A stretch of DNA of 64,000 bases from Halobacteriovoraceae bacterium. Its GTDB lineage: Bacteria; Bdellovibrionota; Bacteriovoracia; Bacteriovoracales; Bacteriovoracaceae. Below the pieces are notes generated by a model. It was not told where the DNA came from and ran no database searches. It saw nothing but the letters and a program-made list of their open reading frames with translations. The stretch lies in the NCBI GenBank assembly GCA_963719505.1, contig CAVRCF010000001.1, positions 416,001-480,000 on the forward strand, read 5' to 3'. The position numbers and the translations under genes were made by a program. This document shows, in pieces, positions 2,134 through 50,064 of this stretch (within the stretch, counting starts at the first letter, position 1; each line of letters begins with the position of its first letter).

Positions 2134-2499
2134 ATGGAAAGAAAAAGAAGAAGATTTACCGAAGATCAAAAAATCCAAATTCTACAGGAACATCGTTCAA
2201 AAGGTGTTCCAATTTCAGTTTTAGCACGAGTCCATGATATAAATGCAGTAACTTTATACCAATGGAAAAGAGCTATGAAAGACAAACCTGATACTAATAT
2301 CGATGTTGCTGACCTTTTGAAACAAATTGATCAACTTAAAAAAGACAAAGATAAACTACTCAAGAAAGTTGGTGAATCTACCCTCAGAGAAGAGGTCGCT
2401 CAGGATATCATCGATTTTTATAAAAAAAAGATCTTGGAACAGGAGTTGATCGAGCAAAAGAATTCATCAAACTCAAAAAGAAAGGATCAAAAAAAATGA
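2134..2499 (+). CDS. IS3 transposase OrfA (HTH)
   Basis: RRRFTEDQKIQIL...VLARVHDI...LYQWKR HTH followed by a coiled coil. Confidence 0.9.
   Translation: MERKRRRFTEDQKIQILQEHRSKGVPISVLARVHDINAVTLYQWKRAMKDKPDTNIDVADLLKQIDQLKKDKDKLLKKVGESTLREEVAQDIIDFYKKKILEQELIEQKNSSNSKRKDQKK
2424..2430 (+). other. -1 ribosomal frameshift slippery site A AAA AAG
   Basis: In the OrfA frame; the -1 frame is open from here into OrfB. Confidence 0.8.
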
Positions 2500-3299
2500 T
2501 CTGTGAAATGTTTGGAGTCCACTCAAAATCAATTTATAAAACGACTAGCTCAAAGAAATTTTACTTTAAAGCTGAAGATGGAGAAATACTAAGCCAGATT
2601 AGGTCAATTGTTTCCTTACGACCAACTTATGGTTATAAACGAGTTACGGCCATGGTCAATCGTCTTCGACTTACTCTGGGGCATCCAAGGCTTAATAAGA
2701 AGCGTATCTACAGGATCATGAGAGTGAATGGACTTCTTCTTCCAAAGTCTGCTGTGACGAGAACTCACACTCCAACTGGCAAAGTAATGACTCTGCATTC
2801 AAATACAAGGTGGTGCAGTGATTGTTTTGAGATTAAGTGCTTTAACGGAGAAAAAGTTTTTGTTTCTTTTGTTTTAGATACATGTGACAGAGAGGTTCTC
2901 TCATTTGTAGCTTCAAAATCACCACTGCTTGCGACTGATATTGAGAGTCTGATGCTGAAAGCAGTTAAATACAGGTTTAAAGATTACAAAACTTTGAGAA
3001 CGATAGAATTTTTATCGGATAGAGGAAGTATTTATCGAGCCCATTCTGTTAAGAATTTGGCGAACCATCTTGGTTTAAAAAGCTGTTATACAGCTGCCTA
3101 TAGCCCAGAATCAAATGGAATGAGTGAAGCTTTTGTGAAAACGATCAAGCGAGACTATGTCTACAACAGCGACTGTTACAGTGCGGATGTAGTGCTGAAG
3201 ATGATCAAGGGTTGGATGAAAGATTATAATGAAATAGCACCTCATTCAGGGCTTGGCATGTTGAGCCCGAAAGAGTATTTATTAGAAAATCAAAGGTAG
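2496..3299 (+). CDS. IS3 transposase OrfB (DDE integrase core)
   Basis: YGYKRV, RWCSDCFEIKC, LDTCDRE, SDRGS, SPESNGMSEAF, PHSGLG (IS2 InsD-like). Confidence 0.92.
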   Translation: MICEMFGVHSKSIYKTTSSKKFYFKAEDGEILSQIRSIVSLRPTYGYKRVTAMVNRLRLTLGHPRLNKKRIYRIMRVNGLLLPKSAVTRTHTPTGKVMTLHSNTRWCSDCFEIKCFNGEKVFVSFVLDTCDREVLSFVASKSPLLATDIESLMLKAVKYRFKDYKTLRTIEFLSDRGSIYRAHSVKNLANHLGLKSCYTAAYSPESNGMSEAFVKTIKRDYVYNSDCYSADVVLKMIKGWMKDYNEIAPHSGLGMLSPKEYLLENQR

Positions 3300-6212: not shown

Positions 6213-6217
6213 CGTTG

Positions 6218-6307
6218 GCGGTAGTGCCACGATTGAATCACGAGTTAATCCGCCAGGTCGGGAACGAAGCAACGGGACTGGTTGTTTCTTTGTGTGGTGC
6301 TGCCACT
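6218..6307 (+). ncRNA. ffs: Signal recognition particle 4.5S RNA
   Basis: Domain IV CCGCCAGGTCGGGAACGAAGCAACGG; terminal stem GGTAGTGCCAC/GTGGTGCTGCC; usual position upstream of dnaX. Confidence 0.9.
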
Positions 6308-6433
6308 TATTATTTCAAATACATACCTAATATCTCCTTACATTTCCCTATTTGATTGATCCATGTCCAGTTGCGAATTGACTAATTGGCAGGCCCCATA
6401 TATTTTGCGCTAACAATTGAGAGAGTTTAATAT

Positions 6434-33327: not shown

Positions 33328-33377
33328 CTGTAAGTGTCCTAAATTACAGTAAAACCTGATTAAATCACTAAAATATC

Positions 33378-33404
33378 TAAAGTAATACCTGAGTAAGTCG
33401 ATAT
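33378..33404 (+). promoter_or_regulatory. Sigma28 (FliA) promoter of flagellin
   Basis: TAAA-15 bp-GTCGATAT. Confidence 0.8.
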
Positions 33405-33480: not shown

Positions 33481-34314
33481 ATGGGCTTAAGAATTAAAAC
33501 GAACATTGCCTCACAAGCTGTTCAAAACAACTTAAAAAAAGTAGATCAAAAAACTTCCGATAGTTTTGAGAGGCTATCTTCGGGAAAGAGAATTAACAAG
33601 TCTGCTGATGATGCGGCCGGTTTAGCTATTGCAAACAAAATGCAGGCTGAAGTAATTGGTCTAAAGATGGCAGAGAGAAATGCGAGTAATGGTATTTCAA
33701 TGGTTCAAGTTGCCGAAGGTGGTTTAGAAGAATCATCTAATATTTTAACAAGAATGAGAGAACTCTCAATCCAAGCTGCTTCAGACACAGTGGGTGAACG
33801 AGAAAGAGGGTACTTGAATCTAGAGTACGAACAACTTAATCAAGAAATCGATAGGATTTCTAAGACGACAAAATTTAGTGGTCGAGAACTTCTTACTGGA
33901 GAAGGCGATGGACCTCTAGACTTCCATGTCGGTGCATATGCCGGCGAAGAGAATAGAATTACCTTTGACTCAAGTGAAGCAAACGCAACTTCATCTGGTT
34001 TGGGGATTGACGGTACCAATATTACGAGTAAAGACGATGCCGTCGGAAATTTAGAAAAAATTGATGAAGCAATTGATAAGGTGTCAGGTTTTAGAGCAAA
34101 CCTTGGTTCAATCCAGTCAAGGCTTCAGTCTACAATCTCAAATCTAGGAACTCAGACTGTTAATACCGATGCAGCGAGAAGTAGAATTGAAGATGTTGAT
34201 GTTGCATCAGAGTCAGCAAAACTGGCATCAAGTAATGTTATCAAATCAGCCGCGACTGCTACATTAGTCCAGGCGAATGGAATTTCTAACTCGGCACTTA
34301 GGCTAGTTGGATAA
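33481..34314 (+). CDS. fliC: Flagellin (short, 277 aa)
   Basis: RLSSGKRINKSADDAAGLAI, RMREL, RANLGSIQSRL, SRIEDVD. Confidence 0.96.
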   Translation: MGLRIKTNIASQAVQNNLKKVDQKTSDSFERLSSGKRINKSADDAAGLAIANKMQAEVIGLKMAERNASNGISMVQVAEGGLEESSNILTRMRELSIQAASDTVGERERGYLNLEYEQLNQEIDRISKTTKFSGRELLTGEGDGPLDFHVGAYAGEENRITFDSSEANATSSGLGIDGTNITSKDDAVGNLEKIDEAIDKVSGFRANLGSIQSRLQSTISNLGTQTVNTDAARSRIEDVDVASESAKLASSNVIKSAATATLVQANGISNSALRLVG

Positions 34315-40720: not shown

Positions 40721-42364
40721 CTAGGCTTCCTTTACTCTTTCATTATTGCTCAATTGTGGACCAACCGTCTTTGTTAAGAGGTCGTTCACAATGGCTACTA
40801 AATTCGTTGCTTCGTGAAAAGCAAGCATGTTGCTATTTGTGATCTCTATAATATTATTTCCTGGTGCATTCGCTTTATGAACAAAGAAAAAGTCAGCGAT
40901 AGGTGCAAGATGAGGAAATGCATTTTTTGTCGTTGAGACTAAAGAATCAATTTCACTCAGCTTGTTTACTCTCTCTTGGATCACTGGAACTGAAGGTGAA
41001 TCTTTTTCCGATTCATCGAGTATTTGATTACAAAACTGAAAGCCGTGGCTATAGACCTCAAAAAGATGTTTGGTTCCCTCGAGATGGTGCAGCAGAATAT
41101 TTTCAGTGTCTTTAGAAACTTTTGGAATCTTGCTAGCAAGCTCAATTCCCCTAAAATAATAATTCCATAGAAGTCGATAATAAGACTTAAAAGTATCAGC
41201 TGTATTGGTAAGGTTTTCAGTAATTTCTGTTAAAGCTAAACCACCTTCATCAAAACTTGCTTTAATTATTCTTACTGAGTCCAGCTCTAAAGGTGTACTT
41301 AGTTGAAGTAGGTTTTTAGTATTTATATCTTGCCCTGTAAGACTTAATGAAATAACTGACATCACGGTGTTGAGATTTAAACTTTTATGACATGGCAAAA
41401 GTTCACAAGATGTCTGAAGTTGACATGGAAAACACTTAATCTTCGGAGAGAGGTTAATAACTCTATCGTTGTATGGTGTCGTCTCATGTGGCTTCACGGT
41501 TCCCAAAGAGAGCACAATTGAAGGCATTCTCAAAATACCGGCTAAGTGTGATACCATAGAGTCGTGCCCAATGAATAACTGGGACTCTGAAAGCATATTG
41601 AAAGTATCCTCAACAGAGTTCTTACCAACGACATTTAAAATTCTTTTATTAAATATTTTTAAAATTGGAGCATTTATTATCTGCTCGGCTTTTGAGGCTT
41701 CGTTGGGTGCGCCAACAATATTAATCTCTATTTCTTTGTCTGATTGGAGAATTTTTTCAATTAATTGAGACCACTTACTTGCATCCCACATCTTCCTTTT
41801 ATGTGAAGCAAATGGATGAAGGGTGACGACTTTATTTTTTGGAGTTTTAAAATCAGTTGCAAATGTTTCTTTCGCACCCAAAATACCCTTGAAAACATCA
41901 ACTAGGTTTATTGGACAGTGGGTAGATTCCATGACGTTTGAATAGACATACTGTGACCATTTATCATCGATACCAACTTGTGCCTTCTCATTTCTATAAA
42001 GTCCCATCTTAAGTTTTTCAGAAATTTGAGTCGTTAAGTACGATGAAGACTTATTAAAAGAGAGATTTACAACTAAGTCATACTCATTCTTTTTTACATC
42101 ACTAACAAACTTATGGGTATTTTCAATCGCCTCTCTCAGGTTGATATTGCTTTTATTTAAAAAGTCTTTAGTTTCAAACTCTATGATATTATCAAAAGCT
42201 TCTTTTAGGAGAAATCTCAACTGAGTCGAAAATCTTCTTCTCGTTATAAGTGTCAATTCAAGATTTTGGTGCTCACTTTTTAGCTGCTTTGCTGCTACGT
42301 AGGTTTGTAGAATATCTCCAATACGGGTCAGTTGAATAACGCAAACTTTCATGTTCGTATCCAT
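40721..42364 (-). CDS. GT9 (heptosyltransferase-like) glycosyltransferase with C-terminal extension
   Basis: RIGDILQ, YDLVVNL, HPFAS...KMW, IGHDSMVSHLA, CFPC...C...C. Confidence 0.85.
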   Translation of the reverse strand: MDTNMKVCVIQLTRIGDILQTYVAAKQLKSEHQNLELTLITRRRFSTQLRFLLKEAFDNIIEFETKDFLNKSNINLREAIENTHKFVSDVKKNEYDLVVNLSFNKSSSYLTTQISEKLKMGLYRNEKAQVGIDDKWSQYVYSNVMESTHCPINLVDVFKGILGAKETFATDFKTPKNKVVTLHPFASHKRKMWDASKWSQLIEKILQSDKEIEINIVGAPNEASKAEQIINAPILKIFNKRILNVVGKNSVEDTFNMLSESQLFIGHDSMVSHLAGILRMPSIVLSLGTVKPHETTPYNDRVINLSPKIKCFPCQLQTSCELLPCHKSLNLNTVMSVISLSLTGQDINTKNLLQLSTPLELDSVRIIKASFDEGGLALTEITENLTNTADTFKSYYRLLWNYYFRGIELASKIPKVSKDTENILLHHLEGTKHLFEVYSHGFQFCNQILDESEKDSPSVPVIQERVNKLSEIDSLVSTTKNAFPHLAPIADFFFVHKANAPGNNIIEITNSNMLAFHEATNLVAIVNDLLTKTVGPQLSNNERVKEA

Positions 42365-42495
42365 TATGACTCCTCTTCTATGAGGGACGTAAGTAAAAGA
42401 AGATCTAAGTCTAAGTTTGACAGGTCATTTTGAGTATCAATTTTCTTTTGAAGTGTTTTTAGTGCTTCAGTTATTTCTAATTGTAAGTTGCTCAT
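42364..42495 (-). CDS. Small 43-aa protein not in the ORF track
   Basis: AGGAGG RBS, ATG 42495, MSNLQLEITEALKTLQKKIDTQNDLSNLDLDLLLLTSLIEEES; TAATG coupling to the GT9 start. Confidence 0.7.
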   Translation of the reverse strand: MSNLQLEITEALKTLQKKIDTQNDLSNLDLDLLLLTSLIEEES

Positions 42496-42535
42496 CTTTA
42501 TCCTCCTGATAATGATTGAACCAGATTTCTAGAAC

Positions 42536-44125
42536 CTATCTATTTGCCTCGGTTACGCCTTCTTCTTGTTCCACTGACACAAGGTCAGTAAGAAGGTTTG
42601 TAAGAGCTTGGAGATCGGTTTTGAGACTAAATAAGTGCTTTTCGATAAGTCTCATATTTTCTTCTGGATTTTCAGAGTTTATACTCTCGATTCTTCCTTC
42701 AAATAAACCAATAGCACCTCTGGTAATTGAGGTTGTTTTCGCTTTTGATATAATCTGGTCAAGGTAGAGAACAAAATTCTTTAAATTACTTTGGGACTGT
42801 TTAGCTCCTTTTAAAGAGCGTAAAGTTGCAAGTAAAAGTTTTACTGCGTTAGTTAACTCATCTTTTGATTGAGTGATGAAAGTTGAAAGTGCAATGGGAT
42901 CAACTGACTTTTTAAGATGGCTGACAAATTGTTTATTGGGTTGAAAGCCCATTAGTTGAAAATGGTATGTTCGTTCAATATGGTAGCGAAGTTCTTCATC
43001 TAATTCTACTGGGCCTCTGATTTGAGTCATTAGGAATCCGTAGTCATCTTCTGTTGTCATATAGATTTTATTTGACGTATGCATTGATGAAATCGGCAAC
43101 TCCGATTCAGTTTCTTGATTAAGAAGAATGAGAATATCGTTGGAGACAAGTTCCTCTCCTTGGTAGATAACAAAGTTATCAGTATTAACGAGTGAAGATC
43201 TTCTTTTCATGTTCTTTGATGATCTAAGCTCAATAGTTCTCGTCTCAATGGCATCAGCAAACATTAAGTGCTCGTTACTTTGTGAAACTAAAAAATCAAG
43301 GTTGAGTGCCACTGATGGAAAAGCAGTTCGATCGGTGTTTATAGAAATTAATTTGTTATCAAATCGCTCGTTTAGTCGATTGACAAGAGTCTTCTCTTTT
43401 TCGGATCCACTCAGAATGAGTACAGCTTTAAAGTTCTCAGAGTCTTCTAAGGCTTCAATGACTTCAGTAATCGATTCTTTGCATATTGGGCTCCCACCAA
43501 ATGATGGAGAGAGACTTATACCTACCATATAGGTCGGTTGCGATGTCTTTAAGGATTGGCGAATTCTGGAAAAATTCGTCGTTGCGACTTGAGTGAACTC
43601 ATTATTAAATTTTACTTTTTTCCCTTCTCTTCTATAAGGAACGGAGCTCATATAGTGTCTCACAAGATGAGAGGGAATAATATCTTCTTCAATATTAGGT
43701 GACACAAAGTTTAGGTAGTTTGACCACACGTTTGACGTTTGAGCAGAGCCAAGTTTTGAAATACTCGTTCCTGTCATATCGTCTGTTGTCATCATAGAAC
43801 AAAGATAAGAGGCAACTGTATCGTTGGAATAATTTATAATCTTATTCCAATGAGTATCGTAGCAAGGGGCCACAGATTTAAAAAAGCTGTTAAGGGCAAA
43901 AGAGTCACTATAAAGTGAGCTTTCAGAGACACTTTTGGCAAAATTTCTATCTATAGAGTAGACTTCAGATATACCGGCGTGTGCACTAAAGAACGTTAGA
44001 AGATCAGAGTAGGTTAAAACACTTATCTCACTGTGAGGATTTTCTTCTTTAAGAGAGCAAATCAAGTGAGTGCTCCCTATGATATCAATGTCGTGAGAGA
44101 GAATAGTGACTAGAATTTTACTCAT
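42536..44125 (-). CDS. Degenerate GT9-like paralog
   Basis: Similar length and layout to the 40721 GT9 but catalytic motifs are lost; start ATG 44125 after GAGGT. Confidence 0.65.
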   Translation of the reverse strand: MSKILVTILSHDIDIIGSTHLICSLKEENPHSEISVLTYSDLLTFFSAHAGISEVYSIDRNFAKSVSESSLYSDSFALNSFFKSVAPCYDTHWNKIINYSNDTVASYLCSMMTTDDMTGTSISKLGSAQTSNVWSNYLNFVSPNIEEDIIPSHLVRHYMSSVPYRREGKKVKFNNEFTQVATTNFSRIRQSLKTSQPTYMVGISLSPSFGGSPICKESITEVIEALEDSENFKAVLILSGSEKEKTLVNRLNERFDNKLISINTDRTAFPSVALNLDFLVSQSNEHLMFADAIETRTIELRSSKNMKRRSSLVNTDNFVIYQGEELVSNDILILLNQETESELPISSMHTSNKIYMTTEDDYGFLMTQIRGPVELDEELRYHIERTYHFQLMGFQPNKQFVSHLKKSVDPIALSTFITQSKDELTNAVKLLLATLRSLKGAKQSQSNLKNFVLYLDQIISKAKTTSITRGAIGLFEGRIESINSENPEENMRLIEKHLFSLKTDLQALTNLLTDLVSVEQEEGVTEANR

Positions 44126-44786
44126 GAGATACCTCGTTTTCTTTGCTGCCTTTAACAAGGGCGTCAAATGCTAGAAGTCCAAAGTCAAAGCGATTGCGAA
44201 TCCCTCGGTTAAGTTTTATGTCCTCAATAACATCCGTTATTGGTTTGTCTAGACTTTCAAAGTCAGTTAAATACATTTGAAGAATATCGGTGAGATCCTC
44301 AACATAAGCCTGCACATGTGTTGGGGCTTTGTATTTCAAAAAAGCTGTGTAGAACTTTTTCTCAATATTAAAAGAAGGATCGTGTTTTATGATAGCGGGC
44401 TTTTGCCTTAAAAAGCTTATGAACTCTGAACTCTTAAAAAGTTCTTCAACATCACTACTATTAATGACTGTGATTGAAGAGTTTTTAAAAGCTCGATATG
44501 TTTTAAAGCCTTCAGCTATTTTAGTATTTGGTTCGAGAACCAAGATATTAAAATGATCGTGATTTTCACTGAGAAGCCTCTCGATCTGATCAATATGATA
44601 TCCAAACCCGAGCCCGAGGACAAGAACGTGATTTGTTACTTTGAGAGTATCGATATACTTTTCTGCGAACGCCTCAGCTTCTTTAGCCGGGTTGTAAACA
44701 GAGTGAAGGTGAATACCTTTAACTACAGGAACGGGTAGTCCATTTCTTGAAGTTTTAATTTCAAACGTCGTCGTGCGTTCATCCAT
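44118..44786 (-). CDS. Maf (motility accessory factor) N-terminal-like protein
   Basis: LHSVYNPAKEA, VLGLGFGYHI, VLEP, as in Maf/MptE-like N-termini. Confidence 0.65.
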   Translation of the reverse strand: MDERTTTFEIKTSRNGLPVPVVKGIHLHSVYNPAKEAEAFAEKYIDTLKVTNHVLVLGLGFGYHIDQIERLLSENHDHFNILVLEPNTKIAEGFKTYRAFKNSSITVINSSDVEELFKSSEFISFLRQKPAIIKHDPSFNIEKKFYTAFLKYKAPTHVQAYVEDLTDILQMYLTDFESLDKPITDVIEDIKLNRGIRNRFDFGLLAFDALVKGSKENEVSHE

Positions 44787-44814
44787 AAGCGCAAACCTTT
44801 AAGTCAAGCATTGC

Positions 44815-45195
44815 TCATTTTAAGCAATTGAGATTATAACCTTTTAAATTTTCTTTGTTTTTAAACACTTTTGCAATTTCTATTTGTGTTTTATCCTTTT
44901 CTTCATCCAATTTTGAGACTATGAAGTCATCGAATTCAGAAATCTTACCTAATAACAGATTTAGTTGGTTATTATAAAGGACTGCATCTTCTTTATGACC
45001 TTCATTTTTTAAACTCGTCTGTTCAAGAGTTAGTCTTTCGTGGACAGTGCAAATGACACTGATGACTTTCTCTCTTTTTTTTATCAAGTCCTCTAGGGCT
45101 TCAAAGTCGCCCATGTTTACTTGGTTTACACACTCTTGTGAAATTTTCACTGCTTTTTCAATTAAATCTGTCAAAAGTGCGTAGTGGTTGTTCAT
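44815..45195 (-). CDS. FliT/FlgN-like flagellar chaperone
   Basis: Helical, LIKKREKVI, C-terminal KGY; follows fliS. Confidence 0.55.
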   Translation of the reverse strand: MNNHYALLTDLIEKAVKISQECVNQVNMGDFEALEDLIKKREKVISVICTVHERLTLEQTSLKNEGHKEDAVLYNNQLNLLLGKISEFDDFIVSKLDEEKDKTQIEIAKVFKNKENLKGYNLNCLK

Positions 45196-45584
45196 GCTTG
45201 TTTAGCTTCCTTAACTCTTAAGGACTTAACTGCAGACGCCCATCCATCATATAGAGTGTTAAGAACACCAAGCACGCCAACAAGTGGCTCTTTATCAATT
45301 TTAATATTGGCCTGAGTACTAGAGTAGATCATATAGTCGTAAAGAGAGGATAGTTCTTTTGAAATATCTCCACCTACTTCATGATCTAAACTATTGTTGA
45401 GCTCGATGATAATATCTTGAAGCTTTCCAATAAACTCACCCTTTTTGGCGACTTGTTTAGCTTCGATTGCGTCGATAGCTTTTTTGCAGTTTTTAATCGC
45501 TGCTTGATACAACATTAAAAGAACTTGCTCTTTACTTGCAGTTTGAACTGAAGTTTTCTTGTAAGCTCCTAATCCGTAGCTCAT
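45192..45584 (-). CDS. fliS: Flagellin chaperone FliS
   Basis: AYKKTSVQTAS..LLMLY, IIELNNSLD, LYDYM, W near the C-terminus. Confidence 0.95.
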   Translation of the reverse strand: MSYGLGAYKKTSVQTASKEQVLLMLYQAAIKNCKKAIDAIEAKQVAKKGEFIGKLQDIIIELNNSLDHEVGGDISKELSSLYDYMIYSSTQANIKIDKEPLVGVLGVLNTLYDGWASAVKSLRVKEAKQA

Positions 45585-45599
45585 TCATTCCTCCTTAAA

Positions 45600-46988
45600 T
45601 TATCCCAGTTGGGTTACAGGGTTTCCACCACCGCCCATTCCGGCGAGACCACTACCTTGTGCCTTTATTCTACTCATTGTTTCTTCAAGCCTAGCAAACT
45701 TTGCTTTGAGCATTTGCTCTTTCTTATCCACATGTCTCTGCTTGCTCACAATCTTTCTATCAATCTGCTTTATCTGACTCTCAAGTCCATGCTTCCTAGA
45801 ACTAAGGACACCGCCTTGAGACTTAAGGGCATCAGAGACGAGTGTGTCCAAGTGATCAATAAAGCCATCGACCTTTCCATTTTCTCTTGTATATTTACCC
45901 GTAATAATCTGCGCGACTTCATCATAATTTTGGTCTAGTTTTGATTTAAGCTTATCTGTATCAAGCTTGAGCATACCATCTCTTTGGAAGGCAAGACCCA
46001 AGTCTCCGATTCGTCTATTACCATAATCAGTAGAAATATTTTTAAAAATACTTCCTCTGATTCTCGACTCTAGAGTTTGTAGCGTTAAATCACCACCAAG
46101 AGTTTGGGATGTATCGACACTTTCATCAAGGGCATTTTGCTCCTTGATAAACTTAATAACGTCATTTATTTTCGCAACGAGGCCATTGATCTTTTCACTA
46201 ATCTTTGCAGTATCTTCTGTAATTTCAATCGTTACTTCATCACCAGGCTTAGCTTTTTTTAGATCTATAGTTGCTCCAGGAATCAGCTCTGTCGTTCTAT
46301 TGGCCGGAACCTCTAATTCAAATCCATCAAGCTTAACCTTGGCATCCTGAGCATCTCTTTGATTATCAAAGTATATATCTTCAACACCGTCGACAAGGTA
46401 TAGTTCTGGAAAGTCGGCTTTTGCATCATCACCTGTGTCTTCAAGTGTAATAATCATTTTCCAAGGTTTGTCAGTGCCATCACGTGAGTTTACAACATTG
46501 GCTAGCATACCATTGTCACTGTCTTTGTTAATGAGTTTCGCAATTCCAGAAAGAGATGAACTATCACTGTCGATGTAGACTTCTTTTGTTTCTCCATCTG
46601 GTAGCTCGTACTGTATATAGCCCACACCAAGGTATGTTTTGTCTTTGTCCTCAACACCATTTGAAATAGCGGATGATTTTTGGGCGAGTTGAATGACTTC
46701 CAGCTGATAGGCACCAGGTTCGGCTATATTTTTGTCGACGCTAACATCGACCCAGTCTTCTGATACATTGACTTGAAATTCTCTGAAGCTTCGAGCGGAT
46801 TTGGAACTATAGATATCTCCGCGTAGATTTTCTACATGCGCTGTAAGATCACCAAGAAGAGCTTTCTTATTCTCTATTTTTCCTTTTCTCACATTCATCT
46901 GCTCCAAAGGTATTTTTTCAGCGGCAACAATTTGCTGAACAATATCTTTTGGTAGACCTGAATTTATTGATCCAAAAGCAATACCCAA
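45600..46988 (-). CDS. fliD: Flagellar cap protein FliD
   Basis: GSINSGL...IVAAEKIP, QLAQ, AQDA, FARLE; TTG start at 46988 after AGGAGG. Confidence 0.93.
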   Translation of the reverse strand: MGIAFGSINSGLPKDIVQQIVAAEKIPLEQMNVRKGKIENKKALLGDLTAHVENLRGDIYSSKSARSFREFQVNVSEDWVDVSVDKNIAEPGAYQLEVIQLAQKSSAISNGVEDKDKTYLGVGYIQYELPDGETKEVYIDSDSSSLSGIAKLINKDSDNGMLANVVNSRDGTDKPWKMIITLEDTGDDAKADFPELYLVDGVEDIYFDNQRDAQDAKVKLDGFELEVPANRTTELIPGATIDLKKAKPGDEVTIEITEDTAKISEKINGLVAKINDVIKFIKEQNALDESVDTSQTLGGDLTLQTLESRIRGSIFKNISTDYGNRRIGDLGLAFQRDGMLKLDTDKLKSKLDQNYDEVAQIITGKYTRENGKVDGFIDHLDTLVSDALKSQGGVLSSRKHGLESQIKQIDRKIVSKQRHVDKKEQMLKAKFARLEETMSRIKAQGSGLAGMGGGGNPVTQLG

Positions 46989-47093
46989 ATGTCCTCCTGA
47001 CTTCGTAAAAGCGCTCCTGCACTTTCTGGGCTTCAGGTATAAGATTATCATAGTAAGAATTTGATGCAATAGGGAACAATTTGAGTTAGAATC

Positions 47094-47128
47094 AAAAAAT
47101 GGCCTGTCTCTTTGGGAAGAAACAGGCC
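47094..47128 (-). terminator. Intrinsic terminator upstream of fliD
   Basis: Minus strand GGCCTGTTTCTT-CCCA-AAGAGACAGGCC-ATTTTTT; 12-bp stem whose G-U pair forms only on the minus strand. Confidence 0.8.
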
Positions 47129-47178
47129 GTTGGGATTAGGATAAATTGGGTATGGGTTTATGAGCTATTAACTCATAC
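47094..47178 (-). ncRNA. Candidate sigma28-dependent small RNA or attenuated fliD leader (~85 nt)
   Basis: Promoter at 47184-47210, 5' hairpin, C-rich unpaired middle, terminator. Confidence 0.55.
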
Positions 47179-47183
47179 TAATC

Positions 47184-47210
47184 TTGTCGGGTATTATGGA
47201 TAAAACTTTA
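47184..47210 (-). promoter_or_regulatory. Sigma28 (FliA) promoter
   Basis: Minus strand TAAA-15 bp-CCCGACAA; same TAAAGT start and spacing as the flagellin promoter. Confidence 0.7.
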
Positions 47211-48732
47211 GTAAAAAAGTCGGATATATTAAAAATAAAGTATATATTCTTTATAAGTCGGATAGTTACGTACTTCTCGTTCTTATTAATTCCAATATGG
47301 TTACAAAAATCTGTTGAATCTAACCTAGCAGTTCAGTCAGGTATTTTGTTGATGTACATGATCTTCATGGGCGGTCAGTGGTATTTGCTGGGTAAGGAGA
47401 TCGACCACAGATTGGGGATCTATTATAGGGTAAATTCTTCCATGGATAGAATTCTCTATCGTGTCGTAATGGGAAATATTTTTGTTATAATTTTCTTTAA
47501 CGCTGTCGCATTATTACCGGACTCAGTCGCTCAGGTAATCTTTTGGTGTTTCTATGGATTTCTAGGAATCTTTTATTCATGGCCCACTCGAGGAAAAATC
47601 ATTGAAGAGTCAATGGCCGCACAGTTTAGCGAGTTTAAATTTTTAGATTCCTTTGAGAAAACAGTCTTAGGTTTAACCTTTATCGTAAGCCTATGCTCTT
47701 TACCGGAAATTCCATTATTTGAAAATATTGATGCACTTAAAATGTATTTCGACCCAAGTGAAAAAATTCATATTGGAATATGGGAATTTTTGAAAGTAAA
47801 CTATCTCCCTTTTAATTCTTATCCTCAGTTATATAATTTATCTTGGAGCTATCACTTTTTCTTTAATGGGCTGATGATTTACCTATTGTCTTTTTACGCA
47901 CTCGCTAGGTTTTTTCTTTCTCGCCGCCTCTCAATTTTGGCTGTTTTTTCAGTTGTCTCAACTTGGTCTTTTGCAAAAATTGTAGGTAACAATATTATTC
48001 TCACCTACACTACGACTTTCCTTGTCCTATGGGTGTGGTCGTTTCTATGGACCATTAAAAGTGCAACATATCGTTCAGGTCTCTTTACGGGTCTTGTGCT
48101 AGCTTTTGGAGTGATGTTAAATATTCATTATATTTTTTTACTGCCTGTAACCTTACTCAGCATTTATTTTATACTTTCTTAAAAAAGAAACAACGTGGTT
48201 TAAGCGGCAATGGCTAAAGTATAATATCCTTGGTTTTCTTGTCACTTTAGTCGTTTCTCTGACTCACTTTGAGATGGGAAAAATGTTTTCTGGAGAATCG
48301 TTTTCTTTTCTTTATGCAATATTGGCAGAGTTTATTTATAGGAAAGCTTTCTACGTGCTTTCTTTCTTTGGAGTTTTTCTCGTTTTATGCTTCAAGTTTA
48401 ATTTCCTTAAAAGGTATTTGTCATTAGTGACTTTCGACAAAGAGAGATTTAATCAATTGTTTTTCTGTGTCTGTGTCATAATAGTTTTTGGATTAACTTT
48501 TAGTAAAGTTTACTTGGAAGGTTTTTCTCTGTTATGGATTATTGCTTTTCTTTGCTTAATTCCACTCGAATGGATTTTCCAATCTATCAGTCGCCTTAGA
48601 TCGAAAAGAAATATCATCTACACGCTCTACATCCTTGTATGCCTATTAGACTCACACCTAGAGGGACGTATCAGAATTATGGGAAAACTTTTTCTAAATG
48701 AAGAGGTTTATAAGTATATCAATCAAATGTAA
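47196..48732 (+). pseudogene. Polytopic membrane protein split by a 1-bp frameshift (or assembly error)
   Basis: First frame stops at 48182; the +1 frame is open from 48151 through 48732 and continues hydrophobic sequence (YFLKKETTWFKRQWLKYNILG...). Start codon uncertain. Confidence 0.7.
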
Positions 48733-48790
48733 GTAAAGTAAATACACCTAGCATAAGTAATTAAAATCACTGACTAAATCTCTTTTTATC

Positions 48791-48820
48791 TTGCTGCAAG
48801 TTTCTTTGTGGTGGTAAACT
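48791..48820 (+). promoter_or_regulatory. Putative sigma70 promoter
   Basis: TTGCTG-18 bp-TAAACT with TGn extension. Confidence 0.4.
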
Positions 48821-48842
48821 ATAAGAGAGTTTAAAGCAGTTT

Positions 48843-49088
48843 ATGGCAAGGAGGTCATTTTTGCTTAAGTCTACGCTATCCGCTTCTCTTTTCGATGAAT
48901 TTTCATCTTCCTATCAAACCTACAACCCATCACTTGACCACACAGACAAACCCTTCGTTTATGTAGATCCACTTGGAAACATAAAGCTTCTTACGAATAT
49001 GGTGACTGATAATGAGTCTGACGATGGAATTTTTGCAGTTTCTGTGGCCGAAGATGGTTGGATGGAGTATCTAGCACTGCAAGAATAA
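48843..49088 (+). CDS. Small hypothetical protein
   Basis: ORF with an upstream promoter-like motif; AAGGAGGT suggests an alternative TTG start near 48861. Confidence 0.6.
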   Translation: MARRSFLLKSTLSASLFDEFSSSYQTYNPSLDHTDKPFVYVDPLGNIKLLTNMVTDNESDDGIFAVSVAEDGWMEYLALQE

Positions 49089-49299
49089 GTCAGTTTGGGG
49101 AAAACTAAAACCTCAAATCTAACTGTTTCTGTCATGTCTTTTGCGTAGCAGTATAAAGGATTTTATTTAACGTCCTAACTACATGAAAGTATGAACTTAA
49201 TTAAATAAACGTTTATTCGTTTTGCGTTAGTTCTGCTACACTCAAGTGTGGAAAACTGCAGCTAATCTGTGGATTAGTTTTAAAAAGCGTAGAAAACTT

Positions 49300-50064
49300 A
49301 TGAGAAATAAAATAGATTTTGTTGAAATTTTGGCTATCTTAAATCAAATTAAGCCACAAATTTGTCAATTTATTGACTCAAAAATGAATGATTTTGAGTC
49401 TTTAGAACTTTCTCATAAGCGAGATGATTCACCAGTAACTATAATTGATTTAGAAATCTCACGGATTTTCAAAAAAGCCTTTATAGAATCGTTCCCTCAC
49501 CTAAATTTCTATTCAGAAGAGGACCCAGAGAACTTTATATACCCATGCGTTATTCTCGATCCTATTGATGGAACAAAGGAGTTGGCTCAAGGTGTGGACG
49601 AGTGTGCGATTTCTTTTGGAATCTACTTCTCAGGAGACTTTGATGATGAAGACAATTTCTCTTGGATTTTTAACCCTTTCAATAATTTGAAGGCGCACAG
49701 CGCCCAAAAATACATAAATTCGAGAAAGAAGAAAAGGTCGTCTCTTTACGGACTGGTCTCTAATACAGAGTTTGAGGCGGATTTATACGGTAACAATTAT
49801 AGTGGCGTTATGGTCATGCCTAAGGGGAGCATAGCCTACAAGCTAGCGCTGTTGAGCCAAGGCGTGTGTGACTTTGTTATGACGAAAAAACCCAAGAATA
49901 TTTGGGATATTATGGCCGGAAGCCATCTTTGCCATCGAAAGGGAATAGCTCTCTTTCAAGGTGAAAAACAACTCAGCTCCTTAGATTCAGCTCTAATTGA
50001 AGGGCCACTTATTTGGTGTAAAAAAGAAGACTTTCCAAAAATAAAAAAGCTAATTCAAAAGTGA
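49300..50064 (+). CDS. Inositol monophosphatase/CysQ family phosphatase
   Basis: SPVT..D, SEE, LDPIDGTK, GSIAYK, WDIMAG. Confidence 0.88.
   Translation: MRNKIDFVEILAILNQIKPQICQFIDSKMNDFESLELSHKRDDSPVTIIDLEISRIFKKAFIESFPHLNFYSEEDPENFIYPCVILDPIDGTKELAQGVDECAISFGIYFSGDFDDEDNFSWIFNPFNNLKAHSAQKYINSRKKKRSSLYGLVSNTEFEADLYGNNYSGVMVMPKGSIAYKLALLSQGVCDFVMTKKPKNIWDIMAGSHLCHRKGIALFQGEKQLSSLDSALIEGPLIWCKKEDFPKIKKLIQK

Follow-up and report, generated by a model that had tools for sequence, protein, structure and literature searches.

Upstream of the filament-cap gene fliD of a Halobacteriovoraceae bacterium, the minus strand carries a compact RNA unit made of a promoter of the type recognized by the flagellar sigma factor FliA (sigma28), a 5' hairpin, an unpaired C-rich tract and an intrinsic terminator. 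The DNA analysed here is a stretch of 64,000 nucleotides (nt) from contig CAVRCF010000001.1 (positions 416,001 to 480,000), referred to below as the window; positions are those of the window unless a related locus is named. Its sequence features lend good support to this reading as a short RNA unit that has its own terminator and a promoter of the FliA type. By comparison with related genomes, it is a member of a real RNA family, conserved in the Bacteriovoracaceae and the Halobacteriovoraceae, and not a chance arrangement; the comparative evidence, namely conservation, compensatory changes and promoter spacing, is decisive on this point. A short RNA driven by FliA had been proposed at this place in an earlier prediction made from the letters of the window. 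The unit was indeed found and relatives carry substitutions that preserve its structure, the transcript itself being predicted.

The explanation that we favour, tentatively and with a probability somewhat short of even, is that of an independent, FliA-driven small RNA (sRNA) of about 85 nt, ended by its terminator, the seed of which, in the window's clade, masks the Shine-Dalgarno (SD) sequence and UUG start codon of fliD and perhaps the earliest codons of fliS as well. According to this model, RNA polymerase carrying FliA, the flagellar and attack-phase sigma factor, would transcribe the RNA of about 85 nt and stop at the RNA's own terminator. The product would have the layout of a stable base-pairing regulator, with a protective 5' hairpin, a single-stranded seed of 30 nt, and a terminator with its U tail. 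The seed would pair with the SD/UUG start region of a fliD mRNA made from a separate promoter of the housekeeping type (P2) and, possibly, also with the first codons of fliS, which belongs to the same operon. Such pairing would limit the translation of the cap and of the chaperone once the late, FliA-driven programme is on. If this regulation of fliD is true, it would link the late flagellar and attack programme to the supply of cap protein. In the Bacteriovoracaceae and the Halobacteriovoraceae, two families in which FliA governs motility and the attack phase, the element would then be the first RNA regulator that is tied to the flagellum and conserved in both. A covariance model for it is already available, and fliD, to which fliS may possibly be added, is a defined candidate target.

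Anatomy and folding of the RNA unit

Read on the minus strand from position 47210 downwards, the unit begins with the sigma28-type promoter (47184-47210), which consists of TAAAG (47210-47206), a spacer of 15 nt and CCGACAA (47190-47184). The 5' hairpin, H1 (47159-47177), is a stem of 8 bp that includes one G-U pair and is closed by a 3-nt loop (UAUGAGUU-AAU-AGCUCAUA); its foot lies at the predicted +1 or at most about 2 nt from it. Then comes the unpaired C-rich tract AACCCAUACCCAAUUUAUCCUAAUCCCAAC (47129-47158), the 30-nt candidate seed, in which three CCCA motifs and UUUAUCCU can be recognized. A fourth CCCA forms the loop of the terminator (47094-47128), whose 12-bp stem (47128-47101, GGCCUGUUUCUU-CCCA-AAGAGACAGGCC) contains 6 G-C pairs out of 12 and is followed by an A and six U residues (47099-47094). 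The original prediction was accurate in all its coordinates and details for this strand, from the promoter at 47184-47210 and the 8-bp hairpin placed at the expected +1 (47159-47177) to the tract and the 12-bp terminator with its CCCA loop and U6. The distance separating the 3' end of the RNA from the fliD start, for which it gave about 105 nt, is 106 nt.

When the 85-nt RNA is folded, it forms H1 and the terminator and nothing else (-26.3 kcal/mol, z = -8.2; none of 200 shuffled sequences equals it), in agreement with the hairpins anticipated. The C-rich tract is free in both the minimum free energy (MFE) structure and the centroid structure, as had also been anticipated. The hairpins being palindromic, the opposite strand folds with a similar energy (-26.7 kcal/mol, z = -4.1); a U-run after the hairpin is lacking there, however. 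In addition, the G-U pairs of the H1 and terminator stems can form on the minus strand only, as the original prediction had pointed out for both stems. Thus, the G+C-rich hairpin, the A and the U6 that define an intrinsic terminator are all found on the strand taken to be transcribed. A scan of the 40-50 kb region for terminators returned 11 sites, against 5.6 +/- 2.7 expected, and this terminator came top of the list, with the largest number of stem pairs (12). Since no minus-strand gene ends upstream of it, the terminator serves no coding gene.

Two other functions of the RNA were considered and rejected. As to a small open reading frame (ORF), the RNA of the window holds just AUG-AGU-UAA. 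As to a decoy for CsrA, the RNAs of the window's clade (defined below) contain no GGA motif at all. With the two covariance models described in the next section (R1 and R2), neither the window nor any related locus showed a second copy of the element, each locus having at most one plus-strand copy.

Conservation and covariation

A single FliD scan of species-representative genomes yielded 69 loci, 65 of which had upstream DNA. The closest fliD relatives place the window among the Bacteriovoracaceae and Halobacteriovoraceae, within the Bdellovibrionota. The same succession of promoter, hairpin of variable sequence, unpaired tract and terminator was recognized in nearly all of the 65 loci, by eye and by folding each sequence separately. 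Covariance model R1, built from nine relatives with the window excluded, places the window element at 47091-47185 (E = 3e-5, 37.3 bits). It also finds one element in each of 17 loci, which makes 18 elements in total at E <= 0.01. Model R2, built from 17 loci of a larger clade, finds 44 plus-strand elements, together with three weak minus-strand matches to the palindromic terminator. The union of the two models covers 60 of the 65 loci with upstream DNA, in addition to the window. Among the five loci without a match, three (L025, L030 and L067) carry a variant recognizable by eye, one (L061) has a different hairpin and one (L065) has nothing. The element is present in Peredibacter sp. HCB2-198 (L015, 5783-5872), a named strain with a complete genome, and in metagenome-assembled genomes labelled Bacteriovorax stolpii.

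The original prediction had suggested looking for covariation in relatives, and both hairpins do carry compensatory changes. In an alignment of 18 sequences (A5), 92.9% of the cells are paired and 14 of the 19 base pairs have changed on both sides. None of 500 shuffled controls reaches the observed values and, when the register is slid, only 24-59% of the cells are paired. In this alignment, H1 has 92.3% of its cells paired and double changes in 7 of 10 pairs, and 7 of 8 pairs of the terminator show compensatory changes. Of the 15 terminator pairs in the alignment of 47 rows (A7), 12 show compensatory changes, and pairing in this helix amounts to 94.6%; H1 is paired at just 71%, because its length varies and the register of the model slips. 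A MAFFT alignment of 36 elements gave an RNAalifold consensus of 0 pairs because the hairpins differ in length, and clade-wise seed alignments and covariance models were used in its place. An alignment of 15 sequences (A2) was rejected as a seed, eight of its rows fitting at most 14 of the 19 reference pairs and the lowest only 5-8, and a strict terminator finder, which missed 26 loci, served for seed coordinates only.

A run of at least four T residues follows the terminator in 47 of 61 elements, the other 14 having only an interrupted T-rich tail. The tract is conserved in the window's clade (ACCCAAyCCUAAUUCAUCCUAAu), a result to which the original prediction had tied the functional reading of the unit. 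As for the terminator loop, the large clade has GUUCA(C/A)C and the window's clade CUACCCAG, and CCCA is the loop of the window. The conservation of this loop exceeds the needs of termination. By eye, the loop and 3' arm of the large clade (UUCACCUUCUCU) resemble what we take to be the anti-SD end of 16S rRNA.

Fifty-six of the 60 loci in which a model detects the element, and the window as well, have it immediately upstream of fliD and on the same strand. It is apart from fliD in four loci (L031, 4119-4210; L034, 4074-4165; L046, 4099-4190; L059, 2489-2575), where 1-2 ORFs of 537-553 amino acids (aa), on the same strand and belonging to no Pfam family, occupy the 1.8-3.5 kb between element and fliD. 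The inserted ORF of L034 has a probable ATG about 55 nt past the terminator, with no obvious SD sequence.

A promoter of the FliA type

In the portions of PMC3627812 on which we rely here and below, the sequence TTAAG-N16-CCGATA is reported in 92 of 140 mapped attack-phase promoters of Bdellovibrio bacteriovorus and is ascribed to FliA. In the supplement of that study, the promoter of the flagellin gene Bd0606 reads TAAAG-N15-CCGA and its mapped +1 is the 11th nt after CCGA. The promoter found in the window agrees with this experimentally derived motif (PMC3627812) and, by analogy with Bd0606, its +1 is expected at about 47176-47179. The flagellin gene of the window is preceded by the same architecture, CTAAAG-N15-TCGATA (33377-33403). 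Indeed, these two promoters are the only exact occurrences of CTAAAG-N15-YCGAYA in the 64 kb. If one mismatch is allowed, there are four sites versus 1.3 expected, a number that 3 of 100 shuffled sequences reach. The loose pattern TAAAG-N14-16-CCGA occurs twice in the window versus 1.29 times expected and, alone, is no rarer than chance.

The comparison with relatives is more telling. A motif of the TAAAG-N15-CCGA type precedes 60 of the 61 elements, the remaining one being merely clipped by the extraction window, and the spacer is 15 nt long in 59 of these 60 cases, with TAAAG in 58 and CCGA[TC] in 58. In most loci, TAAAG corresponds, on the other strand, to codons of the neighbouring gene (xCT-TTA-G). 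However, the motif is retained in relatives whose element has a G+C content of 53-55%, and also in a subclade that lacks the CCAT start in the spacer, which makes coding constraint alone an unlikely cause of its conservation. The element has, therefore, the sigma28-type promoter that one expects of a FliA-dependent flagellar sRNA. Apart from the elements' own promoters, the 69 loci contain a single exact TAAAG-N15-YCGAYA; it is found in L054 (4941-4966, plus strand), about 860 nt upstream of the element, within the divergent-gene region.

A separate promoter for fliD

The fliD gene (45600-46988, minus strand) encodes the filament cap, a protein of 462 aa that matches the Pfam families FliD_N and FliD_C and the NCBIfam FliD models. 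It is preceded by a promoter-like sequence of its own, the sigma70-type P2 (47042-47069, minus strand), composed of TTGCAT (47069-47064), a 16-nt spacer ending in TGA and TAATCT (47047-47042), and located 53 nt before the start codon. Of 66 upstream regions, 63 contain the motif TTGCNN-N16(-17)-TANNNT at this place, versus 2.8% of shuffled controls, and 55 of these 63 have TG just upstream of the -10 element. The -10 hexamer varies (TAATCT, TACTCT, TAAAAT, TATTAT and others) and its position is constant, the pattern that a working sigma70-type promoter would be expected to leave. In all four loci in which the element is apart from fliD (L031, L034, L046 and L059), fliD keeps P2. The finding of a conserved P2 downstream of the terminator favours a small RNA over a plain leader, and the strong terminator, P2 and the split loci together make an independent short RNA the most economical reading.

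Several side observations concern the region between the terminator and the fliD start. A conserved block (47070-47091, minus strand) adjoins the -35 element of P2 on the upstream side, with the sequence TAACTCAAATTGTTCCCTA in the window itself; its form in the window's clade is TAGCTTAGATTCTACCCTA and in the large clade TAGCTCACTTTCTTCCCAC, and it may be a candidate binding site for a regulator. A sigma54 promoter in the conserved sequence in front of fliD was considered and discarded, no GG being properly spaced from GC by eye. The 5' untranslated region (UTR) of an mRNA started at P2 contains a small hairpin, AAGUGC-AGGA-GCGCUU (47009-47024, minus strand). Relatives retain a hairpin at this place, by eye with purine-rich loops that are often CAGGAUG or AGGA, and in the large clade the fliD SD itself lies within a hairpin, CUUUC-AUGGAG-GAAAG. 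This layout resembles, again by eye, that of paired CsrA-binding sites.

Pairing of the tract with the start regions of fliD and fliS

The fliD initiation region (46981-46998, minus strand) has UUG (46988) as its start codon, behind AGGAGG (46998-46993) and ahead of GGUAU, which bears out the UUG start with an SD sequence assigned in the original prediction. It is the predicted partner of the tract: the complementarity between AUACCCAA and UUGGGUAU, extended by UCCU/AGGA, is present. For comparison, a site counted as start-region-like if an SD motif and a start codon led into an ORF of 80 aa or more, and pairing was computed with RNAduplex. The fliD start is the best of the 37 such sites in the window. 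Two groups were then considered separately, the window's clade (the window and 15 loci) and the remaining 45 loci. In the first group, the fliD start is the top site of 13 of the 16 members versus 2.8 expected, with a median of -18 kcal/mol versus -8 kcal/mol for the other sites. Measured against all 55-nt segments of the same locus, 13 of the 16 fliD starts reach p < 0.01, versus 3 of the 74 other start regions.

Taking intramolecular structure into account did not abolish the predicted interaction. Cofolding of the two RNAs of the window gives a ddG of -9.1 kcal/mol, which none of 30 shuffled tracts equals, and 16 intermolecular pairs that join nt 26-50 of the RNA to positions -13 to +7 of the mRNA. 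In the window's clade, at most 7% of the shuffles do as well in 10 of 15 sequences (L058, identical to L056 in A5, was left out of the 16). These calculations make fliD a plausible target in the window's clade.

A second candidate site is the start of fliS (45192-45584, minus strand; Pfam FliS), which encodes the flagellin chaperone. In the window, fliS codons 4-6 (GGAUUAGGA) are the perfect complement of UCCUAAUCC in the tract. In the large clade, the fliS start reaches p < 0.05 in 14 of 42 loci, versus 23 of 315 for the other starts, and ranks first in 16 of 42. The duplexes are short and rich in G-U pairs, and the case that pairing makes for this site is a modest one. Covariation between fliS codons 4-6 and the tract appeared suggestive by eye; it is not significant, involves related genomes and was not retained. 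A broader form of the model, which we consider doubtful, would extend the family to the whole order Bacteriovoracales. Repeated seeds of the CCCA/CCUAA type would pair with both the fliD and the fliS starts, in a feedback exerted by the late programme on the making of cap and chaperone, and seed and target would have been re-tuned between marine-type and freshwater-type clades.

Other partners put forward for the tract fared less well. The only flagellin gene of the window (33481-34314) lies 13 kb from the element and begins, as the original prediction said, with AUGGGCUUA; as a target, its start was rejected, since its pairing energy of -11.3 kcal/mol is equalled by 17% of random segments. 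No flagellin gene occurs in the 69 related loci. Likewise, AGGAUAAA does precede the 43-aa ORF named in that prediction, and this ribosome-binding site was rejected as a target with -9.8 kcal/mol, a value reached by 27% of random segments. A site in fliD codons 10-12 of some large-clade loci (UCUGGUCUA with UAGACUAGA) was dismissed because these codons vary freely among relatives, and a UUUAUCC/GGAUAAA match to the start of the divergent gene because relatives do not retain it.

Alternative explanations

A number of results weigh against the model in which an sRNA acts on fliD. In the window, 2.2% of random 55-nt segments pair with the tract as well as fliD does. In the other 45 loci, the fliD start reaches p < 0.05 in 5 of 45 cases versus 23 of 315 for other starts, which is no enrichment, and over all 61 elements the median z of fliD relative to shuffled tracts is -0.55. 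Within a clade, cognate pairs of tract and fliD start are no better than non-cognate ones (-18.2 versus -17.7 and -10.4 versus -10.6 kcal/mol). This means that there is no fine-scale co-evolution, and the signal of the clade may represent one inherited state. Hence, of the pairing with the fliD start announced by the original prediction, the window result, the cofold and the ranking in 13 of 16 members of the clade stand, the signal being absent from the other 45 loci. Moreover, in most relatives AUA/UAC, which forms part of the pairing segment, is taken up in the 3' arm of H1, and pairing with fliD does not explain the motifs that the large clade conserves most strongly, ACC-yWAGAC and the GUUCA(C/A)C loop. 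Alignments A5 and A7 were fitted to the models, which somewhat inflates their pairing, double substitutions being seen in the raw sequences as well. Finally, and on the same side of the balance, the expression of the RNA, its ends and its FliA dependence are inferred from sequence. The same applies to the view that it acts in trans, to the choice of its target and to the sense of its effect.

The same elements could be read as a leader or attenuator acting in cis. The sigma28 promoter would be a second, late-class promoter of fliD-fliS, with the terminator limiting read-through and the tract acting as an anti-SD sequence on the fliD start. The position of the element, directly upstream of fliD and in the same orientation in 56 of 60 loci and the window, fits this view, and the helix between tract and fliD start forms in cis in the MFE as well as the centroid fold of a read-through RNA of 214 nt. 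The interrupted T-rich tail of 14 of the 61 elements makes some read-through plausible, and enterobacterial fliD operons do possess a sigma28 promoter besides one of an earlier class. A cis-acting leader is nevertheless unlikely in view of a terminator that is strong, conserved and covarying (T-run of at least four in 47 of 61), of the presence of P2 between this terminator and fliD in 63 of 66 regions and of the 1.8-3.5 kb of coding sequence that separate the unit from fliD in four loci. Furthermore, no antiterminator pairing is seen in the predicted structures: the terminator is intact in the MFE and centroid folds of both RNAs (85 nt and 214 nt), with no helix competing for its 5' arm. No riboswitch or leader family of Rfam matches, and the unpaired tract is just about 20-30 nt long. 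Antitermination mediated by a protein may be envisaged. Another interpretation is that the main target lies elsewhere (flagellin, other attack-phase mRNAs or an RNA-binding protein) and that the match to fliD is a by-product of a C/U-rich, anti-SD-like seed. It would account for ACC-yWAGAC and GUUCA(C/A)C, which have no consistent partner in fliD, and also for the conserved loop CUACCCAG. It is consistent with the fairly good pairing of window-clade tracts with foreign fliD starts (-14.8 kcal/mol), with the enrichment of the fliS start in the large clade (14 of 42 versus 23 of 315 at p < 0.05) and, as far as the portions of PMC3627812 used here go, with the broad attack-phase regulon driven by FliA in Bdellovibrio. 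We hold it to be improbable nonetheless, as in the window's clade fliD surpasses the other SD-bearing starts, the flagellin start of the window, the only one available, pairs at chance level, and the window-clade RNAs have no GGA motifs of the CsrA type.

The unit could, on the other hand, regulate the divergent membrane-protein gene, by transcriptional interference or as a cis-antisense RNA to its leader. The ATG of this gene is inside the promoter spacer, an overlap that is kept in a distant relative, and the unit stays adjacent to the gene in all four loci where it is apart from fliD. The tract also pairs with the start region of the gene in the window, at -16.0 kcal/mol. Against this, 3.4% of random segments pair as well, the UUUAUCC/GGAUAAA match is lost in relatives, no promoter can be identified for the gene and physical linkage follows trivially from the overlap, while interference would leave the conserved tract and terminator loop unexplained. 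We therefore deem this function very unlikely. Lastly, the loose promoter pattern, with 2 occurrences in the window versus 1.29 expected, would agree with the view that a promoter-like motif and hairpins came together by accident in an AT-rich spacer and have no function. Such a coincidence is scarcely credible when the whole unit recurs in 60 of 65 loci, compensatory substitutions are found in the two helices and the 15-nt spacer is kept in 59 of 60 cases. The FliA-driven sRNA directed against the fliD start thus remains the explanation that we prefer, with the reserve expressed at the outset.

Relation to known small RNAs

A search of the whole window with Rfam 15 at the gathering threshold gave one match, the bacterial small signal recognition particle (SRP) RNA (6216-6311, plus strand), and a permissive scan (E <= 10) of 44000-50000 gave eight weak matches, none of them over 47094-47210. 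The original prediction did not recognize the RNA as one of a known family, which agrees with these Rfam searches. Full-text searches on Bacteriovorax, Halobacteriovorax and Bacteriovoracaceae brought up no relevant small RNA, within a coverage that leaves out most subscription journals. From its sequence, the element would act like a known kind of regulator, yet it belongs to no family described in Rfam or in the literature searched.

To judge from the relevant portions of the two studies, control of flagellar assembly by FliA-dependent sRNAs has been shown just in E. coli (PMC10578931) and Campylobacter (PMC11187230). In E. coli, the small RNAs UhpU, MotR, FliX and FlgO, which FliA controls, tune flagellar synthesis by base pairing (PMC10578931, same portions). 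The present element resembles them in being a short RNA with a FliA-type promoter in the flagellar regulon. It differs in that the E. coli RNAs are derived from UTRs, according to the same source, whereas this unit is free-standing between divergent genes and has its own promoter and terminator. In Campylobacter jejuni, as described in the sections of PMC11187230 consulted, CJnc170 (FlmR) is FliA-dependent, CJnc230 (FlmE) targets flgM and Cj1387c, and the two RNAs feed back on flagellar components and repress translation through pairing at mRNA 5' regions. The present RNA would likewise be tied to the flagellar transcription hierarchy; the C. jejuni RNAs belong, however, to a different phylum, and no sequence relation to the present one is detectable. 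In addition, CJnc230 is processed from the flgE mRNA (PMC11187230, same sections), whereas the element is predicted to be a primary, terminated transcript.

Closer in phylogeny are the eight attack-phase sRNAs of B. bacteriovorus HD100 (APsRNA1-7 and merRNA). Three of these have FliA promoters, and the portions of PMC3627812 already mentioned describe the attack-phase sRNAs as unconserved and with no function assigned. One of them, APsRNA3 (561,854-561,981), is just upstream of the flagellin gene Bd0604, located at 562,130; fliD of HD100 is Bd0610, at 570,624, preceded by Bd0609, and the same portions of PMC3627812 list no sRNA there. Like the element, APsRNA3 is a short RNA with a FliA-type promoter in a flagellar neighbourhood, and in the same phylum. 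Unlike the element, it precedes a flagellin gene and not fliD, and its printed sequence, compared by eye only, does not have the layout of hairpin, tract and terminator. RsaE of Staphylococcus and RepG of Helicobacter use C-rich seeds to block G-rich ribosome-binding sites. The unpaired CCCA and UCCU repeats of the present RNA would similarly face a purine-rich SD/start region, a likeness that concerns the mechanism only.

Neighbouring genes

The gene that diverges from the unit (47196-48182, plus strand) encodes a polytopic membrane protein, and its ATG lies inside the sigma28 spacer, where it appears as CCAT on the minus strand. The N-terminus of the protein aligns from residue 1 with a 511-aa protein of L034. 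The gene seems to be split into two plus-strand ORFs, 47196-48182 (328 aa) and 48274-48732 (152 aa). The first corresponds to residues 1-325 of the L034 protein with 53% identity, the second to residues 365-495 with 42% identity, which points, near 48183-48273, to a frameshift, a stop codon or an error of the assembly. As a lead only, a PMT_2-type (GT-C) glycosyltransferase was suggested for this gene by a language-model look-up. Downstream of fliD-fliS, the minus strand of 40721-44786 contains two ORFs of about 545 aa and one of 222 aa. The first of the longer ORFs matches Pfam Glyco_transf_9 and the second, weakly, NCBIfam heptosyltransferase models, and the 222-aa ORF has a weak match to Maf_flag10_N. 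Together with the divergent gene, this region suggests a putative flagellin-glycosylation island. Elsewhere in the window, an ORF pair resembling an insertion sequence (2134-3299, plus strand) encodes an HTH_Tnp_1 transposase and an rve integrase-core protein.

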